Below, one piece after another: positions 13,237-63,831 of a DNA stretch of 64,000 nucleotides. Positions within the stretch are counted from its first letter, which is position 1. Each line of letters begins with the position of its first letter. Source of the stretch: a virus. Location: the IMG/VR virus record IMGVR_UViG_3300037307_000400; one strand, written 5' to 3'. Under the pieces are notes generated by a model. It saw only the letters and a program-made list of their open reading frames with translations. It did no database searches and had not been told where the DNA came from. A program made the translations under genes and the position numbers.

Positions 13237-14178
13237 ATGACCAACGTTTTCCTGAGAAACCCGAGTGAGCGGCGCCTTCCGGGGCATGAGAGGCGCGAGA
13301 GCGCGGAGCGCGGCCGAGACTTCAAGCGGCGGCTCGAGGACATGACGGGCGGCGGGGGGATGAAGCGGGACCTGCGCCGCCTCGTGGCTCGTGAAGAGGA
13401 AGACATGTACCCCTGGGAGAGCGACATGCGACCCAACGGCTCGGTGGACTTGAACCTGTACGCGAACCCCTACTCGCTGGACGGCCGGGGCTTCTACTTC
13501 ACGGACCTCGACGAGTACCAGGCTGGGTACGACAAGGAGTACAAGCGGGCTCGGACCGAGGAGTATGAGATCGACTTCATCGACGGTTCGCCGCTCGAGT
13601 CGGCGCTGTTCAAGGCGATGCACGTCGACCAGGCGAGCCTCGAGAAGTACTTCGACCTGCTCGACGAGCTGGACGGCGATGACGAGAGCACGGTCGCTGC
13701 GTTCCTCTGGCTGACCGGCGACATCGGCTACGACGTCGAGAAGGCGATCCGCAAGGTGCGGGACGTGTCGCTCGTGGCGGCGAAGCCCGAGGACTACGCC
13801 TACGACTTCATTCGTGACGTGGGCATGAGCGAGGACTGGCAGTCGATGTACTTCGACTACGACTCGTTCGGCCGAGATCTCCGCCTCGACGGATACCCGA
13901 CGCGCGACATCGAAGACCAGATCGAGGAGGCTCGGGAGTCCGAGGATGAGGACGAGGTTGAGCGGCTCGAGGCGCAGCTTGAGGATCTTGAGCGCATGAC
14001 CGACCAGGAGATCGGCGAGGAGTACGTCGACAGCGTCGGTGGCGTCATGGAGGTCGCGGACGCAGAGCGGTACTTCGACTTCGAGGCATTCTCCCGCGAC
14101 GCGGTGCTGGGCGGGGACTGGGCGACCTTCGACTACGACGGCACCGAGTACACGATCACGAACGCCTCCGAGTTCTGA
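13237..14178 (+). CDS. ardA: ArdA antirestriction protein with N-terminal extension
   Basis: Very acidic; YANPY, EEYEIDFID, YFDYDSFGRDL, YFDFEAFSRD. Alternative start at 13426. Confidence 0.85.
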   Translation: MTNVFLRNPSERRLPGHERRESAERGRDFKRRLEDMTGGGGMKRDLRRLVAREEEDMYPWESDMRPNGSVDLNLYANPYSLDGRGFYFTDLDEYQAGYDKEYKRARTEEYEIDFIDGSPLESALFKAMHVDQASLEKYFDLLDELDGDDESTVAAFLWLTGDIGYDVEKAIRKVRDVSLVAAKPEDYAYDFIRDVGMSEDWQSMYFDYDSFGRDLRLDGYPTRDIEDQIEEARESEDEDEVERLEAQLEDLERMTDQEIGEEYVDSVGGVMEVADAERYFDFEAFSRDAVLGGDWATFDYDGTEYTITNASEF

Positions 14179-22035: not shown

Positions 22036-24489
22036 ATGTCGTACATGGACGAAGGCGGAACGAAGCTCCTCGCGACGCACTGCCTGAGGTGCGGCAAGCC
22101 GCTACGCGACCCGACGTCGGTCGAGCTAGGCCTCGGGCCGGACTGCGCGGAGATCGTGGGCTTCGGGCACGAGTTCCACGTCGAGCCCGACGACGAGGCG
22201 CTCGAGGCCGCGCTCGCTCTGGCTCCCGAGGACCTGCGTGCGGCCTACCGGCGCGGGGCCGCGAGCGGCGGCAACATGCGCGGCGTGAGCTTCGCCCTGC
22301 ACAACGCAGGCTGGCATTGGGAGCACGAGGCTGAGCGTGCCCGGAAGCACCTCGCGTCGTTCGTCGAGATCGCGACGGCTGCGGGCTACCTCAAGATGGC
22401 AGGCGCCGTGCTCGCGCGCTTCGCCAAGCTCGACCTCCAGGGCATCGACCCGGACAAGCTCGTCAAGGGCGTTCGCGTCAAGCTGCAGGACGGGCGCGAG
22501 GGCAAGTACGTCGGGACGTGGGGCGGCCGGCACGGCATCTCGTTCGGCCCGGGGCCGCTGCACTACACGAACACGTCAGGCATCGCCGAGGTCAAGACCG
22601 TGGCGGGCGCGTCCGTGGACGCGACGGTGTCGAAGTTCACGGCCGAGGACTTCACGCGGCAGAAGATCCCGTTCAGCATCCTGCTGACCGACGACACTGA
22701 GGTCATGGTCGTGCAGCACGGCACGAACAACCGCGGCTTCTGGATGCGGACGAACGACGCCGAGCACAAGTTCGTGACCATCCCCGAGGTCAAGGCGATC
22801 TTGGGCGCGCGCGAGCCCGTGCTGCGCTTCGAGCAGATTGAGCCGGGCATGCGCGTGAAGCTCCGCAGCGGTGATGCGGTGACCATCGTCAAGAGCGGTG
22901 TCTCGAAGGCGGGCAAGCGGTACGTCATCAGCGCGGACGCCAAGGGCCTGGAAGGCTTCCTTGACCTCTACGAAGTCACCGAGGTGCTGAGCGGCCCCAC
23001 GGCGGCGACGCGCGCCATCGCGGGCGCAGCCCCGGTGGAGCGGGAGTACCAGCCGCGGACCCTCGAGCTGAGCCGCAAGCTGTTCGCGCACCAGCGAGAG
23101 GGCGCCGAGTGGATGGTCGAGCGCGGCGGCGTGATCCTCGCCGACGACATGGGCCTCGGCAAGACAGCGACGAGCATTTCGGCACTCACGGTGCCCGCGG
23201 TCATCGTGTGCCCCGCGACGCTCAAGGCGAACTGGGCGCGTGAGATCTCGATGTGGGGCCAGCCAGGTTGGAGCGTGTCCATCGTCGGCGAGCGGAACGC
23301 GGACCTCGACGCTGACGTCGTGGTCTGCAACTACGAGCGGCTCAAGGGTCCGGTGCTCGAAGCGCTCCTGAATCGAGGCAACGAGACGCTCATCTGCGAC
23401 GAGGCGCACGCGCTCAAGAACTTCCGCGTGTTCCGCGCGCGCGGCGGCGAGCTGAAGCTCGGCAAGAACAACAGCCAGCGGGCGGACGCTGTGTGGCGGC
23501 TTGCGAGCTTCGGCGGACCTGACGGAGTCCGGGTGCCGCAGCGCTTCCTGCTCACGGGCACGCCGATGCCCAACGGCCGGCACGAGGAGTTGTTCCCCCT
23601 GGTCAACATCGCGAGCGGCAAGGGAGTGTTCGGGGACTTCCGCGCGTTCTGCGAGGACTACTGCCCGCCGGTTGAGAAGTCGTTCCGCGGCCAGAGGGTG
23701 GTCGACTACTCGACCAACGCACAGGCGGAGCACCTGAAGGAGCAGCTCAAGGACGTGATGCTGCGCCGGACGAAGGACCTGCTGAGCCTGCCGGAGAAGC
23801 TGCGCTCGACGAAGCTCCTGGAGCTGGATGCTGAGACGGCGAAGCAGTACAAGGCTGCGCAGAAGGACTTCCTCGCGTGGTACAAGGCTGCGGGGAAGGA
23901 CGCGAGCCGGGCGCTGCACGCAGAGGCAATCGTGCGCCTGACAGCGCTTCGCAAGCTCGCGGCTGTGGGCAAGGTCGACGGGTTCCTGGGCGAGATCACA
24001 GACTACCTGCTCGGGAGCGTCAACCCGTTGATCGTCATGGCGCATCACCGCGAAGTGCTCGACCAGCTTGAGAGCGAGCTGAGTGAGTTCCGCGTCCAGC
24101 GCATCGACGGCGGGGTGCCGACGCACAAGCGTTCGCAGATCGTGGACGACTTCCAGGCCGGCAAGATCGACGTGCTGCTCTGCTCGATCACGGCGGCGGG
24201 CGTGGGCATCACGCTCACGCGCGCGGACTCGATTTTCTTCCTCGAGCGAGTGTGGCGCCCGTTCGACATGGCGCAGGCCGAGGACCGGCTGCACCGCATC
24301 GGGCAGACCAAGATGGTCAACGTGATCTACTACGACGCGCCGGGAACCATCGACCTCGTGCTCGCGGCGCGGACCCAGGCGAAGATCGAGAACGCCGACA
24401 AGGTACTTGGCGGGTCGTCGGGCGACCCGGACACGCCGAGCGAGAACCTGGACGAGATCGTGCAACAGCTCATTCAGCAGTCGAAGTAA
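22036..24489 (+). CDS. SNF2-family helicase with N-terminal DUF6011-like zinc finger
   Basis: CLRCGKPL..SVELGLGPDC; LADDMGLGKT, DEAH, LTGTP, GITLTRA, QAEDRLHRIGQ. Confidence 0.92.
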   Translation: MSYMDEGGTKLLATHCLRCGKPLRDPTSVELGLGPDCAEIVGFGHEFHVEPDDEALEAALALAPEDLRAAYRRGAASGGNMRGVSFALHNAGWHWEHEAERARKHLASFVEIATAAGYLKMAGAVLARFAKLDLQGIDPDKLVKGVRVKLQDGREGKYVGTWGGRHGISFGPGPLHYTNTSGIAEVKTVAGASVDATVSKFTAEDFTRQKIPFSILLTDDTEVMVVQHGTNNRGFWMRTNDAEHKFVTIPEVKAILGAREPVLRFEQIEPGMRVKLRSGDAVTIVKSGVSKAGKRYVISADAKGLEGFLDLYEVTEVLSGPTAATRAIAGAAPVEREYQPRTLELSRKLFAHQREGAEWMVERGGVILADDMGLGKTATSISALTVPAVIVCPATLKANWAREISMWGQPGWSVSIVGERNADLDADVVVCNYERLKGPVLEALLNRGNETLICDEAHALKNFRVFRARGGELKLGKNNSQRADAVWRLASFGGPDGVRVPQRFLLTGTPMPNGRHEELFPLVNIASGKGVFGDFRAFCEDYCPPVEKSFRGQRVVDYSTNAQAEHLKEQLKDVMLRRTKDLLSLPEKLRSTKLLELDAETAKQYKAAQKDFLAWYKAAGKDASRALHAEAIVRLTALRKLAAVGKVDGFLGEITDYLLGSVNPLIVMAHHREVLDQLESELSEFRVQRIDGGVPTHKRSQIVDDFQAGKIDVLLCSITAAGVGITLTRADSIFFLERVWRPFDMAQAEDRLHRIGQTKMVNVIYYDAPGTIDLVLAARTQAKIENADKVLGGSSGDPDTPSENLDEIVQQLIQQSK

Positions 24490-38864: not shown

Positions 38865-39458
38865 ATGCAAACACTCAGAATCATCCTCGCCGCCGTTCTG
38901 CTCACGAGCCTGACCTGGGCCAGCACCGAGCCTCACGTCGCAGCACTCCACGAGCTGCTCTCGAAGCTGCCGCGGTGGCACGAGGACACCACCGAGCCCG
39001 ACGAGGCGCGCGCCGAGCGCCTGCGGACCATCGCGACCGCGCAGGTCACCGCGACCGGCGGGGACGTTCCCGCCGCCGTGTTCCTCGCGACGGTGAGCTG
39101 GTGGGAGAGCCGCCTCGCCAAGCACGTCCACGAGGGCGCCTGCCGCCCCTGGGAGTGCGACCGAGGGCGCGCTCGAGGCCTCGCTCAGGTCCAGCTCGCC
39201 TCAGGCGTCGACCGGGACCTCTGGGAGCGCTCGAAGGGGACGGACTACCCCGCGACGCTCGCGAGCATGCAGGCTGCCCACTACGTCTACTCCCGCGCCG
39301 TGCGAGCCTGCGGCCCGAGTATCGGCGAGGAGCACCGGCTGTTCGCGTTCTACGCGCGCTCGCGGTGCAACGCGGAGTACCCCGACGGGCGGGAGCGCGC
39401 GGCCTGGTACCGAAAGAAGCTCGCGGAGTACCGCGGGCTGCTCGAGGCCAAGAAGTGA
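38865..39458 (+). CDS. Secreted lysozyme/SLT-like protein
   Basis: Signal peptide MQTLRIILAAVLL; WESR..GLAQVQ motifs. Confidence 0.6.
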   Translation: MQTLRIILAAVLLTSLTWASTEPHVAALHELLSKLPRWHEDTTEPDEARAERLRTIATAQVTATGGDVPAAVFLATVSWWESRLAKHVHEGACRPWECDRGRARGLAQVQLASGVDRDLWERSKGTDYPATLASMQAAHYVYSRAVRACGPSIGEEHRLFAFYARSRCNAEYPDGRERAAWYRKKLAEYRGLLEAKK

Positions 39459-40369
39459 CCGTTCTCGCGCCCGTCTACCCAGGGCTGCCCAACGTCTCGG
39501 GCGCGAACACCGACACTCAGCTCATCGACCTGTGGCTGCGCGGCAAGCGCAGCGAGCACACCAAGCGGGCCTACAAGACCGACCTGCTGCGGTTCGGGGC
39601 CTTCCTCGAGACGCTGCCGCTCGAGGCCGACGAGGACCTGCCGGCGCGCCCTGAGGGCCTGCGGGGCACGACGGCGCAGCACGTCCAGCTCTTCGTCGAG
39701 CACTTGCAGGCCGAGGACGCGGCGCCGGCATCGGTCCGGCGCCGGCTCAGCGCGCTGAAGTCGCTGCTCTCCTACGCGCAGAAGACGGGCTACCTCCAGT
39801 ACAACGTCGGCGCGGTCATCCAGGCGCCCGAGGCGCACCACCGGGTGACGGACCGCATCCTGTCCAAGGAGCAGATCCAGGCGATCTTGAGCAACGCCGC
39901 CGGGCGCGACCGAGCACTCTTGCACTACATGTACTACTCGGGGGTGCGCATTTCGGAGGCAATCAAGCTCCGCGTTCGTGACCTCTACCGGCCGGACGCA
40001 GAGCACCTGACCGTGACCGTGGTCGGCAAGGGCAACAAGCAGAGGATCGTGCCGTTGCCGGTCGAGAAGCTCTGGCCGGTGCTCGGGCCCTTCGTCGAGG
40101 GGCTCCCGCCGGGCGCCTGGGTGTTCCCGGGGCGCAAGGGGCAGCACCTGTCGCAGGGGCGGGCGTACCGGATCGTGAAGATGGCGGCGAGGCTGGCGCG
40201 GTGCCCGGACGCGAGCCCGCACTGCCTGCGGCACAGCCATGCGAGCCACGCGATCCGCAACGGGGCCCCGGTCCACGTCATCCAGCAGACGCTGGGCCAC
40301 GCCAGCGTCGCGACCACGAGCGTGTACCTGCACGTCGAACAGGGCGAGTCGAGCGGAATGTACTTGTAG
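39455..40369 (+). CDS. Tyrosine recombinase (XerC/D-like)
   Basis: SAM-like N-domain; RD..Y.SG.RISE, GKGNK.R, HCLRH, LGH, VY catalytic set. Confidence 0.93.
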   Translation: MTVLAPVYPGLPNVSGANTDTQLIDLWLRGKRSEHTKRAYKTDLLRFGAFLETLPLEADEDLPARPEGLRGTTAQHVQLFVEHLQAEDAAPASVRRRLSALKSLLSYAQKTGYLQYNVGAVIQAPEAHHRVTDRILSKEQIQAILSNAAGRDRALLHYMYYSGVRISEAIKLRVRDLYRPDAEHLTVTVVGKGNKQRIVPLPVEKLWPVLGPFVEGLPPGAWVFPGRKGQHLSQGRAYRIVKMAARLARCPDASPHCLRHSHASHAIRNGAPVHVIQQTLGHASVATTSVYLHVEQGESSGMYL

Positions 40370-52722: not shown

Positions 52723-54231
52723 TCACTGAACGTCGCGGCTGTAGAGGCCATCGAAGGTCATGGTGATGACCTTCTGGATGGCGTCGACGGCGTTGAGGTT
52801 GTCGCGAAGCGACAGCATGTTGCGGCTGCCCTGGCGCGTCTCGAACGTCTGCGCCTGGCCGTTGTCCTCCATCTGGAAGATGCGGAACTTGGCGAGGATG
52901 TTCTGACGCGGGGGGAGCAGCACGGCGCGAGCGAGCTTCAGAATGCTCTGGTGCCCGTCGAAGCCGCTGTTCTGCCAGTGGATGAGGTCCGTCGCACCGG
53001 CCATGTCGCCCGAGAGGCCACCGCCCGCGGGGAAGTACCAGACCGGCATGTTGTCGATGGAGTTCTTCAGGCCGGTGCCGAAGGACAGGTGGAGCTGCTC
53101 CTCGGTCTGCCAGAAGAGACGGTACACGTCCTTGATGGTGCCGGGCGCGTTGCCGACGCCGGGACCGCCAGTGAGCCACGGCGTGAGCGTGCCGTAGTCA
53201 CCGTTGAGGCTGACCTCGCCCGGAGCGCCGCCGGCCTGGCGGAGGATCGGGTTGCGGTACCAAACGAACACGCGCAGAGCGAGCGTGACGTGCGACTGGT
53301 CAGACGGCAGAGTCGAGCCGTTGACGAGGTTGGTGTTCGCCTCGGAGCGGTTTCCGCCGTTGGTGAACAGGTCGATGTTGTCCGACAGGAGGCCGGGCGT
53401 GAGGCCGGCAGTACGAATGAGCGTGTCCCAGACAGATGTTACGCAGGCTGTTTGCACCTGCTCTCCTCGTTTCCAAGGAGTATCGGACTATATCACCGCC
53501 TCAGTGGAACTGAGGCGTCGGGCACTCGTGGGGCGGATTATCGGTGGAACTCACCGCCCTAGTCTCTACACCTTCCGACTCCCATCCCCCCGGAGAGGGG
53601 GTTCCTGAGTCGGCTTGGTTCGGGATTACCTCGCGGAGGATGTCAATCACATCCGCAGGGGCTTCCCCGCCGTTTTTCTTCAGTTGCGACATTGTTCCCA
53701 ACACCGCAACATCGAGTTGTGTCGGACGGTAGCACCGCTCGCGGCAAGCTCTCCTGAGAAACCAAGCTACCACTTCCGCCTCAGTCCGCTTCGCGGTCAG
53801 GTGCGGGAGTAGCGCCTCCGTGATTTTCAGGAGCGCATGCTTCTTCTGGACATGAATCCAGTATTGCCAGCGAGTGGCTCTCTTGCCTTTCCAGACTTTC
53901 CGAACCTTCGGATACTCAACGCCTGCGGCATCGAGGATTTTGGAGATCCGATCAATCATGGACTTGGAGGTGTTGCAGATCACAAGCCAGAGCTGATAGC
54001 TCGTGCGCTTCCCCGGCTGGTACGTCTGACGAATGATCGGACGCTTCAAAGAGAAGCACCCCTCACCGTCTACGATGCCTGCCAGCCAGGCTAGATCTGT
54101 TTCAGCAACCAACGACATACTCTCAAAAAACAGTTTGATTCACCCGATTCTCACCCCCAGATCACTCTGAGGGGCCGCCCTTAGGCCGACGGCTGATGAA
54201 CGCGCTCGCGCACGGTAACGATCTTCGGCAT
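52723..54231 (-). CDS. Putative major capsid protein, split: join(54231..54189, 53432..52723), 250 aa
   Basis: Splicing gives MPKIVTVRERVHQP-F-WDTLIRTAG in frame. SD AAGGA and a structured leader upstream; beta-rich with terminal strand ITMTFDGLY. Capsid function is inference. Confidence 0.7.
53433..54188 (-). ncRNA. Group I self-splicing intron (756 nt)
   Basis: 5' exon ends in U, with P1 GCCGU/GCGGC and a U.G pair. P3 UCGGGU/GCCCGA; P- and Q-like elements GCGGGGAAGCC and AAUCCCGAACCAAG; R GUAGAGACUAG; S GAUAUAGUCC; terminal G. Confidence 0.92.
53501..54118 (-). CDS. Intron-encoded single-motif LAGLIDADG homing endonuclease
   Basis: LAWLAGIVDGEGCF; its C-terminus is read through the intron core. 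Confidence 0.9.
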   Translation of the reverse strand: MSLVAETDLAWLAGIVDGEGCFSLKRPIIRQTYQPGKRTSYQLWLVICNTSKSMIDRISKILDAAGVEYPKVRKVWKGKRATRWQYWIHVQKKHALLKITEALLPHLTAKRTEAEVVAWFLRRACRERCYRPTQLDVAVLGTMSQLKKNGGEAPADVIDILREVIPNQADSGTPSPGGWESEGVETRAVSSTDNPPHECPTPQFH

Positions 54232-61327: not shown

Positions 61328-62404
61328 TCACTTTCGCTTGGCCAGGTAGTAGAGGCTCCCGCCCGCAGCGAGCACGAGCAGCCACATCGCCCCGGACCCA
61401 GCAAACATGCTCCCCGGGTCGCAGGTCGGCGCCACGGGCTTGGTCGGCATCCCCGCAGGAAGCAGGGTGCAGTTCGGAGGCTGCGCGGGCTGCACGGGCC
61501 GGACCTCGCAGCCCGGCGCGGTCGGGGGCGTCGGCGAGCAGGTCGGGCGCGCGCCCACCTGCGGCACCTGCTTGCCCGCAGCCCACTGCTCCCACGTCGG
61601 GATCGGGGTCGGGCTCTCGAGCGTCGGCCGCGGGGGCGCCGCCAGGTACTGCGGCGCGGGCGGCGGGGCGTCCGGTCGCAGTACGGTCGCCGGCAGCGTC
61701 GGGCACGCGGGCATGTGCCGCCAATGACACTTGGTCGAGTCCGGCAGGTTCCCCAGCCCCTTGACCACAGTACATTCCAGGTTCCAGCGATCCTTGTTCG
61801 CCTGCGAAATGCAGTCGAACGAGTGGCCGCCCATGAACGTGCGCGGGTAGTTGTCGTAGTCCCGCAGGTACGGGAGTCGATCCTGCGTCTCTTTCCAGCG
61901 GAGTGCGATCTGGTCCCGCTTTGACTGCACCTCGGCGTCGTAGGCCTGCCAGCGAGCAAGCGCCGCCTGGTAGGCGAGCACCTTCGAGGCGTAGGTCGCG
62001 CGAAGCGCGGTGTTCGTCTGCGTGACCTTGTCGACCTCCGACTGCCACGCCGCGAGCGTCGCCTGGTTCTGCCGGGTCAGGTTCGCGTTGCGGGCCTCGA
62101 GCGTGTCGACCAGATCTCGGTACTCGGCCTGGAGCGCCTGCACCTGCCGGCTCGCGGCAGACCACGCGCTCACCTGCACCGCGCAGGCGTCGGCCTCTCG
62201 CTTCAGGGTCGTGTAGCGGCTGCGCTCTGCCTCGCAGCTCGCATTCGACTGGCCCACGCGCTCCTGCTCAGCAAGCAGGCGTTGGTAGGCCTCCTTCGCA
62301 GATGCGCACTCAGCGTTCTGCTGAAGGGCCTGTTCATAGGCGCGCAGGGAAGCTGCATAGTGCTCATGGAGCTTCTGGCACTGCGTCTGTCCCAGAGCAT
62401 TCAC
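61328..62404 (-). CDS. Coiled-coil, Cys/Pro-rich tail-anchored protein
   Basis: GTG overlaps upstream TGA; MWLLVLAAGGSLYYLAKRK. Confidence 0.7.
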   Translation of the reverse strand: MNALGQTQCQKLHEHYAASLRAYEQALQQNAECASAKEAYQRLLAEQERVGQSNASCEAERSRYTTLKREADACAVQVSAWSAASRQVQALQAEYRDLVDTLEARNANLTRQNQATLAAWQSEVDKVTQTNTALRATYASKVLAYQAALARWQAYDAEVQSKRDQIALRWKETQDRLPYLRDYDNYPRTFMGGHSFDCISQANKDRWNLECTVVKGLGNLPDSTKCHWRHMPACPTLPATVLRPDAPPPAPQYLAAPPRPTLESPTPIPTWEQWAAGKQVPQVGARPTCSPTPPTAPGCEVRPVQPAQPPNCTLLPAGMPTKPVAPTCDPGSMFAGSGAMWLLVLAAGGSLYYLAKRK

Positions 62405-63831
62405 AGGTCCACCTTGACGCTCTTCCACGTCGTCACGCGCTGTAGCATCCGCGCCTCCTCAGTCCCCGCGACCGGGTCGCAGACGATCCACTTGCCGCTC
62501 TTGGGCTCCTTCACTCGCGCGAAGACGTGGCTGTAGAAGCCGGGGCGCCCGAAACCGACGACCACGAACTCGCACTCGCGCCCGAGCTGTCGACAGAGCG
62601 CGCCGATGAACGTCGCGATGTCGTCGCAGTTGCTCACGGTAACGTCGTGCTCTGGAAGATAGACGCGATGATCGCTCGTCTGAATGTCCCAACACGGCGC
62701 CTTGAACACGTCGAGATCTAGCTGCTTCACTCGAAGTTTCTTGGCCTTGCCTCGAATCCCCAATCGGTAGATCGGGTTCTTGCCAAGACCTCCATGATTC
62801 TCGACGTATCGGTACCCAGCACTGATCCCTAGCATCCTCAGCAGGACTCGAGTCTGAAGACACAGTTCTCGACTCGTCGTCGTAAAGGTCCTGCCGCTGC
62901 CGTTGGTGTTCTTCCCACTGTCCGCCAGAACGCCTCGCAGCGACTCGGACACACAGTCAACATCCATGTCCAAGGACAGGAACCTCTTGTCCGGTGCGTA
63001 GGAGCCCATCTGAGACATCCGCTGCGCTAGGCCTCGATCATTGATCGCGAGGTACTTCCGATGCCACCGAGTGGACACACCGAGGCGCCGCATGGACTCC
63101 TGGATTTCGTGCTTCTGCGCCTCTTTCGGGTGCCCGTCCAAGCCACTGATGAAGAACCGATGTTCTTCGCACCAGCCATCGGCGATGTAGAGCCCGTCAA
63201 GGTATGCCTGCTCTCTGGAAATCGATCCGACGCCCGCAGCAATTCGGTCGGGGGCTGCCAGCTCCATGCCCTTCCTAAGATCTCGGACTGGAATTCGAGT
63301 TTCTTCGTCGCCGCGCCGAACGTAAACCTTGTGATCCTGCGTGAGCTTCAGATCTGACCCGTTGTTCATGCGAACAACAGAAACCGGCAGCTCGCCCTTG
63401 AAGACCTTCGCCTCAACGGTCGACCAATCGTTCAGACCCCAGATCCGATCACCGACCCGAATTTCCTCGATAGGAACCAACTCGTAGTCGTCTCGTAGCA
63501 GCAGCGTACCTTCTGGGAAGCAATCACCCACCGCGTTGCCGTGCGCGTTGATCTGCTCGCAAATCCTCTGGGGGTCCTGCACCTGCTCAACGCCAAGCGC
63601 GTCGTTCGAGTAGCGGATCTTCTCGTGCGCGAAGTTGCGCACCGCCAAGATCTCACTCAGGTAGTCCTTGGGCGTGAGGTGGCGGACGATGTTGTCCTTC
63701 ATCGACCGCACCATGGTCGACTGCTCGCCCCGCGGCCCGAGAGCCAGCTCGACCATCACGCGCAACGTGTCATCCGGGCCTGAGAAGGCTCCGAGTCTCG
63801 TCTGGGGCGCGTCGGCCAGTGGGAAGGGCAT
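62401..63831 (-). CDS. Transglutaminase-like Cys protease, intein-containing (178 aa after splicing)
   Basis: Exteins join to IRYSND..GD-CDD..YSHVF..CDP (Cys-His-Asp). Confidence 0.85.
   Translation of the reverse strand: MPFPLADAPQTRLGAFSGPDDTLRVMVELALGPRGEQSTMVRSMKDNIVRHLTPKDYLSEILAVRNFAHEKIRYSNDALGVEQVQDPQRICEQINAHGNAVGDCFPEGTLLLRDDYELVPIEEIRVGDRIWGLNDWSTVEAKVFKGELPVSVVRMNNGSDLKLTQDHKVYVRRGDEETRIPVRDLRKGMELAAPDRIAAGVGSISREQAYLDGLYIADGWCEEHRFFISGLDGHPKEAQKHEIQESMRRLGVSTRWHRKYLAINDRGLAQRMSQMGSYAPDKRFLSLDMDVDCVSESLRGVLADSGKNTNGSGRTFTTTSRELCLQTRVLLRMLGISAGYRYVENHGGLGKNPIYRLGIRGKAKKLRVKQLDLDVFKAPCWDIQTSDHRVYLPEHDVTVSNCDDIATFIGALCRQLGRECEFVVVGFGRPGFYSHVFARVKEPKSGKWIVCDPVAGTEEARMLQRVTTWKSVKVDL
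62629..63522 (-). mobile_element. Intein (298 aa) with LAGLIDADG-type endonuclease domain
   Basis: Block A CFPEGT, block B LTQDHKVY, AYLDGLYIADG, block F WDIQT, terminal SN then Cys+1; AT-richer than exteins. Confidence 0.92.

Follow-up and report, generated by a model that had tools for sequence, protein, structure and literature searches.

How does a virus express a conserved gene whose reading frame is broken after 14 codons by a 756-nt insert, and how does this insert accommodate an endonuclease ORF that runs through what looks like the catalytic core of a ribozyme? The gene lies on the minus strand, as do all features given below, of a 64,000-nt stretch of viral DNA (IMG/VR record IMGVR_UViG_3300037307_000400), hereafter the window. 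A search for sequencing runs containing this stretch yielded two DNA metagenomes, from freshwater and groundwater, and no RNA run; the freshwater sample contains the window in full. A preliminary description of the sequence proposed that a group I intron at 53433–54188 splits a putative major capsid gene. We consider it very likely that this segment is a mobile group I intron, which would splice itself out of the transcript of a gene encoding a probable capsid protein. The relationship between its ORF and its core is of a known kind, taken unusually far.

The exons define the insert to the nucleotide. Exon 1 (54189–54231) comprises 43 nt, that is, 14 codons and the first base of codon 15, and has U at its 3′ end; exon 2 (52723–53432) supplies the last two bases of codon 15, a further 235 codons and the stop. 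Joined on the minus strand, the two encode MPKIVTVRERVHQP-F-WDTLIR, the DNA junction CAGCCGT-TCTGGGAC being read as HQP-F-WD. The exon 1 contribution, MPKIVTVRERVHQP, is identical to the N-terminus of the homologues P0002 and P0003, which are 250 aa each and start with MPKIVTVRERVHQPF(F/W)DTL; intron-less homologues with HQPFWD were what the preliminary description had suggested looking for. The ligated RNA is expected to read CAGCCGU-UCUGGGAC, and the protein translated from it would begin with MPKIVTVRERVHQPFWD and have a predicted length of 250 aa, the same as its intron-less homologues and most of the 707 homologues of the host gene. When aligned with the intron-less DNA of L001–L003, the insert appears as a single clean gap of 756 nt, and the exon junction is unique once the reading frame is fixed. 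Removing the insert restores the uninterrupted conserved host frame at a precise junction, as would be expected of a group I intron. The GC content drops from ~67% outside to ~55% within the insert, and the exon 1 frame runs into TAA two codons inside it. Gene callers instead began the host protein at an internal GTG, giving a product of 244 aa (P0001) with the start MQTACV; none of the homologues has anything that corresponds to the residues MQTACVTSV, in agreement with the earlier reading of this start as intron sequence. Both the extent of the insert and the 43-nt exon joined to 53432, as first proposed, are thus confirmed by the intron-less homologues and the DNA gap.

The RNA structure was assessed in 18 related introns, the window copy among them. 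P1 (54174–54193) is formed by exon GCCGU plus the first intron C (54193–54188) and the guide GGCGGC (54179–54174), and places a U·G pair at the splice site. This pair and its flanking pairs, with CCGU facing GCGG, are kept in all 18 introns, and the guide covaries in L005, where the insertion site is shifted. The five nucleotides 5′ of the exon-1-binding GCGG (54179–54183) form the guide strand of P10 and pair with the first five of exon 2 (53432–53428). P10 tracks the exon 2 sequence: 84 of 90 cells are paired (93%) versus 67% with mismatched partners, and there are four covarying variants, GUAG/CUAC, CCAG/CUGG, GAAG/CUUC and CCAA/UUGG; the window's own copy pairs at four of the five positions, with one mismatch. 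P2 (54154–54173) is an 8-bp hairpin capped by a GUGA (GNRA) loop, with compensatory changes at all eight pairs. The 5′ strand of P3 (UCGGGUG, 54141–54147) pairs with 53518–53524; five of its seven positions are paired in every intron and the other two in 17 and 15 of them, with three compensatory pairs. A near-invariant A-rich segment, AAUCAAA (54134–54140), corresponds to J3/4, and is followed by the 5′ strand (54125–54133) of an extra hairpin, P3.1, which pairs with 53670–53678 and closes a loop containing the ORF. All nine P3.1 pairs considered together, 97.5% of cells are paired and seven pairs are compensatory, a value reached in none of 1000 shuffles, although shuffle controls overstate significance because the 18 introns share kinship; offsetting this caveat, many pairs show four to seven different standard pair types.

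In the 3′ part of the structure, P4 (53669–53665/53625–53621) encloses P5 (53659–53651/53638–53629), together spanning 53621–53669; both were predicted independently by RNAalifold, and their invariance means that they carry no covariation information. The arm formed by P6, P6a and P6b (53570–53619) has compensatory changes at six of seven P6a pairs and one of two P6 pairs. In P7, GACUA (53560–53564) pairs with UAGUC (53486–53490), four of the five positions in all introns and the fifth in 17, one pair changing from U-A to C-G in four introns. Between P7 and the P3 3′ strand lies the hairpin P7.1 (53531–53559), with a 6-bp stem that is compensatory throughout and a conserved 17-nt loop. The P3 3′ strand (53524–53518) and the P8 hairpin (53517–53497), which together occupy 53497–53524, follow, the proximal part of P8 contributing five compensatory pairs. 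The closing segment (53433–53490) holds the P7 3′ strand, P9 (53480–53463, with a GAAA loop; six of seven pairs compensatory), P9.1 (53461–53443; four of five) and the terminal G at 53433, the ωG, which is present in all related introns. P6b and distal P8 were left without a score, as loops of such variable length could not be aligned reliably. The helices make up the P3–P8 and P4–P6 domains of the group I core, P3/P7 pseudoknot included. An independent RNAalifold run recovered P4 to P9.1, and 29 of the 55 pairs in its prediction are compensatory; for the 3′ core, the folding energy is −102.9 kcal/mol (z = −3.87). The exon 1 frame stops 6–16 nt past the intron start in all 18 introns, an in-frame stop of the kind found just inside most group I introns (PMC3073962). 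The P1 U·G, P2, P3, the P7 motif and the terminal G had been pointed out at the outset, and all are present with covariation support.

Three alternative pairings were rejected. The Rfam placement of the P3 5′ strand beside P4 (CGG/CCG, 3 bp) gave way to the covarying 7-bp pairing upstream of the ORF. Pairing of CUGUUU, downstream of P3, with the P9.1 loop (AAACAG) was discarded, an all-against-all covariation scan giving the strand just 5′ of P4 as its partner. A 3-bp RNAalifold helix between GGC 5′ of P4 and the terminal G plus UC was treated as spurious, conflicting with P3.1 and P4 and showing no compensatory change.

That the insert is a mobile insertion other than an intron, be it a free-standing cassette for a homing endonuclease or an element resembling an intein, with the gene pieces joined or used otherwise, is extremely improbable even though another gene of the window does carry an intein-like insertion, as the TAA that closes the exon 1 frame excludes an intein and the group I helix set, U·G pair, terminal G and P10 would be pointless in a plain DNA cassette.

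Detection with curated models, the first check proposed for the intron, failed. A scan of ~1 kb with RF00028 matched 53463–53720, aligning P4–P9 and the GACUA/UAGUC motif, at 22.1 bits; the gathering score, 50, is a detection criterion rather than a defining property of the ribozyme. An Rfam scan of the whole window returned nothing at gathering score, and the intron was absent from it even at E ≤ 0.5, so routine annotation misses the element. The RF00028 model allows neither the ~470-nt insertion between P3 and P4 nor the P7.1 insertion. In L055, the same gene contains two introns that lack an ORF, and these reach 77 bits. Proof of group I identity comes instead from the intron-less homologues and covariation, and with the junction and helix set these bear out the original assignment. 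Given the P7.1 hairpin, the intron appears to be IA-like. In the Michel and Westhof classification, the interval from P7 to the P3 3′ strand of IA introns reportedly contains two extra pairings, P7.1 and P7.2 (or P7.1a); here, a single hairpin, P7.1, occupies the expected position, with no second helix identified in its 17-nt loop.

Splicing would proceed along the established group I route. The guide would form P1 with the final bases of exon 1 (CCGU, including the U·G wobble), and exogenous guanosine bound at P7 would attack the 5′ splice site; P10 pairing with the guide would then align exon 2, and once the terminal G had replaced the guanosine in the G site, ligation of the exons would yield an uninterrupted 250-aa jelly-roll protein, probably a capsid protein. 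An intron that has decayed and no longer splices, or that needs an absent trans-acting factor, would leave this gene copy a pseudogene or the source of an N-terminally truncated protein starting at the internal GTG. The low Rfam score, the 244-aa product chosen by the gene callers and the fact that splicing is deduced from sequence are compatible with such a scenario. Nevertheless, we regard it as highly improbable: the window copy has kept all core helices and the endonuclease ORF intact, exon 1 shows perfect conservation, the MQTACVTSV residues of the truncated product are without parallel among the homologues, and compensatory evolution in at least 18 copies signifies ongoing selection on the fold.

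The putative mobility of the intron would depend on the ORF at 53501–54118, which encodes 205 aa and ends with a TGA (53503–53501) in the 3′ strand of P8. Its motif, LAGIVDGEG, has D, G, E and G positions that are invariant in 36 homologues, and profile searches matched I-CvuI (1.3e-6), I-MsoI (1.9e-5) and also I-CreI over residues 6–124/152, as well as phrog_5046 (3.8e-13). Against Pfam, PF14528 and PF00961 remained below their gathering scores (17.9 vs 22.5 and 16.7 vs 23.1 bits, respectively), which are detection thresholds only, and PF14528 is carried by four of the listed ORF homologues. More than 100 homologues were recovered, but a tblastn search of 50,697 phage records produced no match. 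The motif and the profile matches support the LAGLIDADG assignment made earlier and identify the product, by sequence, as a single-motif homing endonuclease of the I-CreI type. Such an enzyme would be homodimeric and would presumably cut intron-less alleles around CCAGCC(G/U)U↓UCUGG, the intron then spreading by repair; a short inverted repeat, CCAG..CUGG, surrounds the insertion site in intron-less DNA and is merely suggestive of a cleavage target.

The ORF begins after the P3 5′ strand, as had been noted; rather than lying loose in J3/4, its body forms the loop of the covarying hairpin P3.1, between J3/4 and P4. From this loop, the frame continues through almost the whole catalytic core before stopping in P8. 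The resulting dual-use stretch (53501–53678) spans 178 nt, or 59 codons and the stop, and comprises the P3.1 3′ strand, P4, P5, P6/6a/6b, P7, P7.1, the P3 3′ strand and P8; the overlap with P4 to P8 amounts to 56 codons, or 59 including the P3.1 3′ strand, matching the ~60 codons first estimated. The frame is open through the core in all 18 introns, which were retrieved through N-terminal motifs only, and 14 of them share one P8 column as the position of the stop. Two layers of constraint are apparent in this tail. Conservation at third codon positions is 0.76 compared with 0.58 in the ORF body, and these positions are as conserved as the first and second, indicative of constraint at the RNA level. 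Conversely, the P6 arm measures 22, 31, 34, 37 or 40 nt among the 18 introns, lengths that are identical modulo 3, and the P5 loop has one 6-nt deletion, also in frame; changes of P6-arm length by multiples of three only point to constraint at the protein level. The shared sequence also implies that one RNA molecule cannot be folded into the catalyst and translated through the tail at the same time. Splicing would then probably come first and translation after, possibly from the excised intron.

Whether the tail matters to the protein is a separate issue from the identity of the intron. It might be unselected read-through, or 'core creep', the intron being GC-rich and poor in stop codons, the protein needing only residues 1 to ~150 and amino acid conservation mirroring that of the RNA. 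The third-position pattern is the signature expected of RNA constraint, similarity to the I-CreI family ends near residue 152, two homologues (P0199 and P0206) lack the tail, and long extensions are predicted by the core-creep model (PMC3073962). We nonetheless consider this explanation possible but on balance unlikely, since frame-neutral drift would not produce P6 arms of equal length modulo 3 or an in-frame P5-loop deletion, the position of the stop is largely fixed, and an EGVETR..ECP tail is kept in frame in ~99 of 101 homologous proteins despite eight spacer lengths. More doubtful still is the stronger proposal that the 53–59-residue tail is a functional protein module co-evolved with its own RNA, or that translation through P4–P8 up to the fixed P8 stop acts as a switch. 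If correct, the module might bind the intron core in a maturase-like or autoregulatory capacity, the switch would restrict endonuclease synthesis to excised or misfolded introns, and a sequence serving as both RNA catalyst and protein would have been maintained across more than 100 intron lineages.

The intron with its dual-use stretch is less novel than the preliminary description implied, because ORF–core overlap ('core creep'; PMC3073962), competition between translation and splicing (reviewed in PMC3984707) and the interruption of phage capsid genes by group I introns, in one case with an I-CreI-like ORF inside (PMC3706429), have all been described. The td intron of phage T4, which encodes I-TevI, resembles it in having an ORF in a peripheral loop whose 3′ end enters core helices and an in-frame stop just inside the intron, and translation of the td ORF interferes with splicing (PMC3073962, PMC3984707). 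However, the td overlap is 20 nt (P6a/P7) and the ORF, in the P6 loop, encodes a GIY-YIG enzyme, as opposed to 178 nt across P4–P8, a hairpin between J3/4 and P4, and a LAGLIDADG enzyme here (PMC3073962, PMC3984707). The LSU rDNA of Synechococcus lividus also holds a group I intron of the bacterial type, the LAGLIDADG ORF of which extends over P6/P7/P3/P8/P9.0/P9, but this ORF is located in P8 and the host is an rRNA gene, whereas here the ORF enters from the 5′ side (P3.1 loop) in a viral protein-coding gene (PMC3073962). Its overlap of 81 nt, the largest tabulated in the core-creep paper, is about half that observed here (PMC3073962). The Bacillus thuringiensis nrdF intron is also of group IA with P7.1 and has an ORF overlapping P6a/P7/P7.1 by 56 nt, differing in its GIY-YIG enzyme, the ORF position in P6a, the shorter overlap and the bacterial host gene (PMC2248736, PMC3073962). 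In mycobacteriophage LittleE, the major capsid gene has an intron, spliced as shown by RT-PCR, with exon 1 ending in U, the intron ending in G and an I-CreI-related LAGLIDADG-type ORF (PMC3706429). Yet the LittleE ORF is on the opposite strand and so does not overlap the ribozyme in the sense direction, and the phage is tailed, of the HK97 type (PMC3706429). Nor did a search of 50,697 phage records reveal sequence similarity of LittleE to the intron, ORF or host gene described here.

The capsid role of the host protein, in turn, is plausible. By sequence, the protein matched nothing in Pfam, PHROGs or a PDB profile search, and tblastn found no match in the same phage records. A first structural model, from a shallow alignment (A5), had a pLDDT of 58 and no usable match, and was replaced by an AlphaFold model from a deeper alignment (A6), which is predicted to be a jelly roll (pLDDT 83.7). 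In structure, it comes closest to the capsid protein of SPV1 (Z 7.3, rmsd 3.7 over 135 residues), followed by HHIV-2, P23-77 VP17 and HCIV-1 (Z 5.1–5.8), all at values below 8, which may reflect a common fold only. Foldseek against the PDB gave E ≥ 0.02, and the best BFVD match (E 7e-4) is unnamed; in the protein atlas, the matches are to unnamed viral clusters, and P2/P3-type families at 0.75–0.77 are at chance level. The earlier designation as a putative major capsid gene is plausible on the jelly-roll model nearest SPV1, the searches by sequence and against Pfam and PHROGs having given no significant match.

In an uncultivated virus lineage, group I introns have a hot spot of insertion in this one gene, which is highly conserved and probably capsid-forming. 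Introns occupy the insertion site (CCGU↓C ... G↓UC or UU) at another 17 metagenomic loci, including a subfamily only ~30% identical in the rest of the host protein, and at least five group I insertion sites were seen in the host gene, with three introns in one gene. Changes in the guide sequence have redirected the intron–endonuclease unit to other sites, some neighbouring and some distant. The curated model misses such an intron and gene callers start the host protein inside it, a mis-call that probably affects about one-tenth of the host gene family (>700 members). With an overlap more than twice the largest tabulated (PMC3073962), the reading frame takes in nearly all of the catalytic core, and the >100 endonuclease homologues and 18 aligned introns constitute a large natural data set with separate signatures of RNA-level and protein-level selection. 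These make testable the long-posed question of how one sequence can serve as both ORF and ribozyme while translation is kept apart from splicing.

A short minus-strand ORF starting at position 54231 (MPKIVTVRERVHQP) meets a TAA two codons past 54189, and gene callers choose an internal GTG as the start of the downstream gene, so that a 244-aa 'MQTACV...' product (P0001) is called. The exon-2 product, used as a query, retrieved 707 homologues, mostly of exactly 250 aa, and the nearest intron-less ones, P0002 and P0003, share the N-terminus MPKIVTVRERVHQPF(F/W)DTL(I/V)RTAGL. Joining 54189 to 53432 yields a predicted product with the same N-terminus, comprising 14 codons, a split codon (T+TC, F) and 235 further codons, that is, 250 aa. 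Alignment with the DNA of three intron-less loci (L001-L003) leaves a single clean gap of 756 nt, CCGT|...CTG|TCTGG is the sole junction possible given the reading frame, and the GC content falls from ~67% outside to ~55% inside the insert (54188-53433, minus strand). The coordinates and junction proposed in the preliminary description are borne out by the N-termini of P0002 and P0003 and by the 756-nt gap, and the intron-less homologues it anticipated do carry the N-terminus of the predicted spliced product.

Rfam returned no match to the intron at the gathering score, nor was it reported in a whole-window scan at E <= 0.5. In a 1-kb scan, Infernal matched the group I model RF00028 to positions 53463-53720, including the GACUA/UAGUC motif of P7 that had been recognized by eye, but scored only 22.1 bits where the threshold is 50, which taken alone makes a weak case for a group I intron. 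The decisive evidence is comparative rather than the Rfam match. The intron ORF (54118-53501, minus strand) has >100 homologues with 50-69% identity, scans of viral and metagenomic contigs yielded 25 close loci, and 17 loci carry the insert at this site in members of the host gene family, including a subfamily ~30% identical elsewhere; all 17 share the 5' boundary ...CCGU|C and the 3' boundary G|U(C/U). Pairs were counted helix by helix in an alignment of 18 introns (that of the window and 17 others), which are related and not phylogenetically independent. The U.G and adjoining pairs of P1 are kept in 18/18 introns, and compensatory changes affect all eight pairs of P2, which has a GNRA loop, and all six of P7.1, as well as 1/2 pairs in P6, 6/7 in P6a, 6/7 in P9, 4/5 in P9.1 and five pairs in the proximal part of P8. 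Each of the seven P3 positions is paired in 15-18 of the 18 introns, with three compensatory pairs, and four introns carry a U-A to C-G change in P7; P4 and P5 are present and invariant, hence uninformative for covariation. RNAalifold applied to the 3' part alone independently recovered P4, P5, P6, P6a, P7, P7.1, P8, P9 and P9.1, with 29 of 55 pairs compensatory. The guide sequence of P10 follows exon 2 (variants GUAG/CUAC, CCAG/CUGG, GAAG/CUUC and CCAA/UUGG), with 93% of cells paired versus 67% with mismatched partners, and the 3' core of the window intron folds at -102.9 kcal/mol (z = -3.87). In all 18 copies (the window intron, at 54188-54170 on the minus strand, and its 17 relatives), a stop codon closes the exon-1 frame 6-16 nt into the intron, inside the P1 loop. 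A stop this early is usual for group I introns (PMC3073962), and it would halt exon-1 ribosomes ahead of the ribozyme core. The compensatory changes across the 18 introns uphold the original group I reading, and judged from these alignments the insert is very probably a functional group I intron. The P7.1 hairpin between P7 and P3', which we take to be a mark of subgroup IA, points to that subgroup; no P7.2 was found in the intron.

Covariation places the 5' strand of P3 at 54147-54141, upstream of the ORF, and its partner at 53524-53518, in agreement with the earlier proposal that the ORF begins just after this strand. The 3-bp P3 alternative adjoining P4 chosen by the Rfam alignment is weak, covariation favouring the upstream strand. 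An all-against-all covariation scan further revealed that nine bases just 5' of the start codon (54133-54125) pair with 53678-53670, directly 5' of P4. In this helix, P3.1, a name in use among the optional group I pairings (PMC3873408), 97.5% of cells are paired, seven of nine pairs show compensatory changes and 0/1000 shuffles reach the observed value, for introns that are related and not phylogenetically independent. An additional hairpin thus stands between the conserved, A-rich J3/4 segment (AAUCAAA) and P4, and its loop contains the ORF body. Most copies have a purine-rich, Shine-Dalgarno-like tract between the P3.1 5' strand and the start codon, and initiation at this point would probably require the ribosome to melt the hairpin joining J3/4 to P4. 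A profile of 36 homologues of the encoded protein matched solved single-motif LAGLIDADG enzymes (I-CvuI, 1.3e-6, also I-MsoI and I-CreI) over residues 6-124/152, and the LAGIVDGEG motif is invariant among the homologues; Pfam matches were sub-threshold, PHROG 5046 matched at 3.8e-13, and tblastn against 50,697 GenBank phage records found no match to the endonuclease.

Past ~residue 150 the frame runs on for 178 nt through the 3' strand of P3.1, P4, P5, P6/6a/6b, P7, P7.1 and P3' to a TGA (53503-53501) in the 3' strand of P8. The overlap with P4-P8 seen in the window extends to the whole set: none of the 18 introns interrupts the frame within the core, and 14 of the 18 place the stop in one shared P8 column. 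For the first, second and third codon positions, column identity averages 0.76, 0.82 and 0.58 in the ORF body, as against 0.79, 0.83 and 0.76 in the tail, where third positions are conserved like the other two; the tail is thus under RNA-level constraint, which explains why GGEAP..REVIPSQA..EGVETRSV..NPTHECP is kept even in 35%-identical homologues. P6 arms measure 22, 31, 34, 37 or 40 nt, all equal modulo 3, the P5-loop deletion is 6 nt, and among 101 homologous proteins the tail spacer has eight lengths and the tail is lost in only two. Ascertainment does not account for this pattern, since N-terminal motifs served to retrieve the DNA loci, and indels that keep the frame indicate that selection acts on translation of the core itself. 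The 17-nt P7.1 loop (consensus UGAGUUCCAACGAUAAU, within 53531-53559, minus strand) is conserved almost like the core helices; no partner strand was found for it, and it may be engaged in a tertiary contact or constrained by the overlapping codons (SV.S.NDNP).

Splicing would follow the standard two-step, guanosine-initiated route with P1 and P10 as guides, and homing would start with the cutting of alleles that lack the intron. In the intron-less junction a short inverted repeat, CCAG-N5-CUGG, surrounds the point of insertion; it is compatible with a homodimeric enzyme and proves nothing. A ribosome on the tail would have to unwind P4-P8, so that translation and catalysis could not coincide on one molecule. 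The most economical reading would be splicing first and translation later, possibly from the excised intron, an order made plausible by the precedent of I-TevI (PMC3073962, PMC3984707).

Phage structural genes with group I introns are already known, as is a capsid-gene intron with an I-CreI-like ORF, which there lies on the opposite strand (PMC3706429). Overlap of ORF and core has been described together with a 'core creep' model, with tabulated values of 0 to 81 nt and 20 nt given in the text for td/I-TevI (PMC3073962), and HNH and GIY-YIG enzymes usually predominate in phage introns (PMC3984707). New here are an undescribed intron family missed by the curated Rfam model, the housing of the ORF in the P3.1 hairpin, a 178-nt overlap that takes in almost all of the catalytic core, evidence at population scale, drawn from sequence comparison, for constraint at the RNA and protein levels at once, and the status of the host gene as a hot spot for introns.

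The host protein had no match in Pfam, PHROG, PDB sequences or GenBank phages (tblastn, 50,697 records). Modelling from a shallow alignment gave a poor result (pLDDT 58); once the alignment had been deepened with distant homologues, retrieved by an exhaustive profile search, a second model (pLDDT 83.7, pTM 0.81) showed a beta sandwich of eight strands and a single long helix. In VIA-align this model came closest to the capsid protein of SPV1 (Z 7.3; rmsd 3.7 over 135 residues), ahead of HHIV-2, P23-77 VP17, HCIV-1 and further coat proteins of jelly-roll type (Z 5.1-5.8); Foldseek against the PDB returned capsid jelly rolls almost throughout (E >= 0.02), and the best BFVD match is unnamed (E 7e-4). 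These scores fall where the common fold alone may be shared, and we lean, on the model, towards a structural protein of jelly-roll type, probably one of the capsid, as the best reading.

In one metagenomic homologue (L055), the host gene contains three group I introns, one endonuclease-bearing at the usual site and, farther downstream, two that are ORF-less, of ~235 nt (L055:2506-2747 and L055:2930-3173, near codons 129 and 191), the latter scoring 77.4 and 76.8 bits, above the Rfam gathering score. The intron at L005:2401-3177 belongs to the same family, its endonuclease being 60% identical, and is inserted 7 nt upstream of the usual position (CAU|CACG ... AAG|CAGCC), with its guide retargeted (P1 GCAU/GUGC, P10 CAGC/GCUG). 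The same intron-endonuclease unit also occupies a second site, ~60 codons into a divergent host gene (L062:~1437-2190; L060 and L061 are similar), with the same P2, P3, J3/4 AAUCAAA, P3.1 and ORF tail and a different guide (AGACGU/GCGUCU); RF00028 scores are 35.6 bits for L062 and 29.6 bits for L060. Five host-family proteins (P0234, P0235, P0236, P0240 and P0262) are 361-512 aa long, 100-260 aa above the 250-aa norm, and in all but P0235 the match is split into two stretches, which suggests in-frame insertions, perhaps inteins, or read-through of further introns.

The window also encodes an integrase (38975-40369), an SNF2 helicase (22036-24489), ArdA (13237-14178) and a glycosyltransferase/methyltransferase block at 42.5-47.7 kb; no tailed-phage structural genes were recognised among the window genes scanned, and the window appears to derive from an uncultivated virus or virus-like mobile element. 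A 476-aa ORF at 62401-63831 (minus strand) has weak Pfam matches to intein splicing, LAGLIDADG_3 and transglutaminase-core domains and is probably an intein-interrupted protease-like gene, hence a second self-splicing element in the window.
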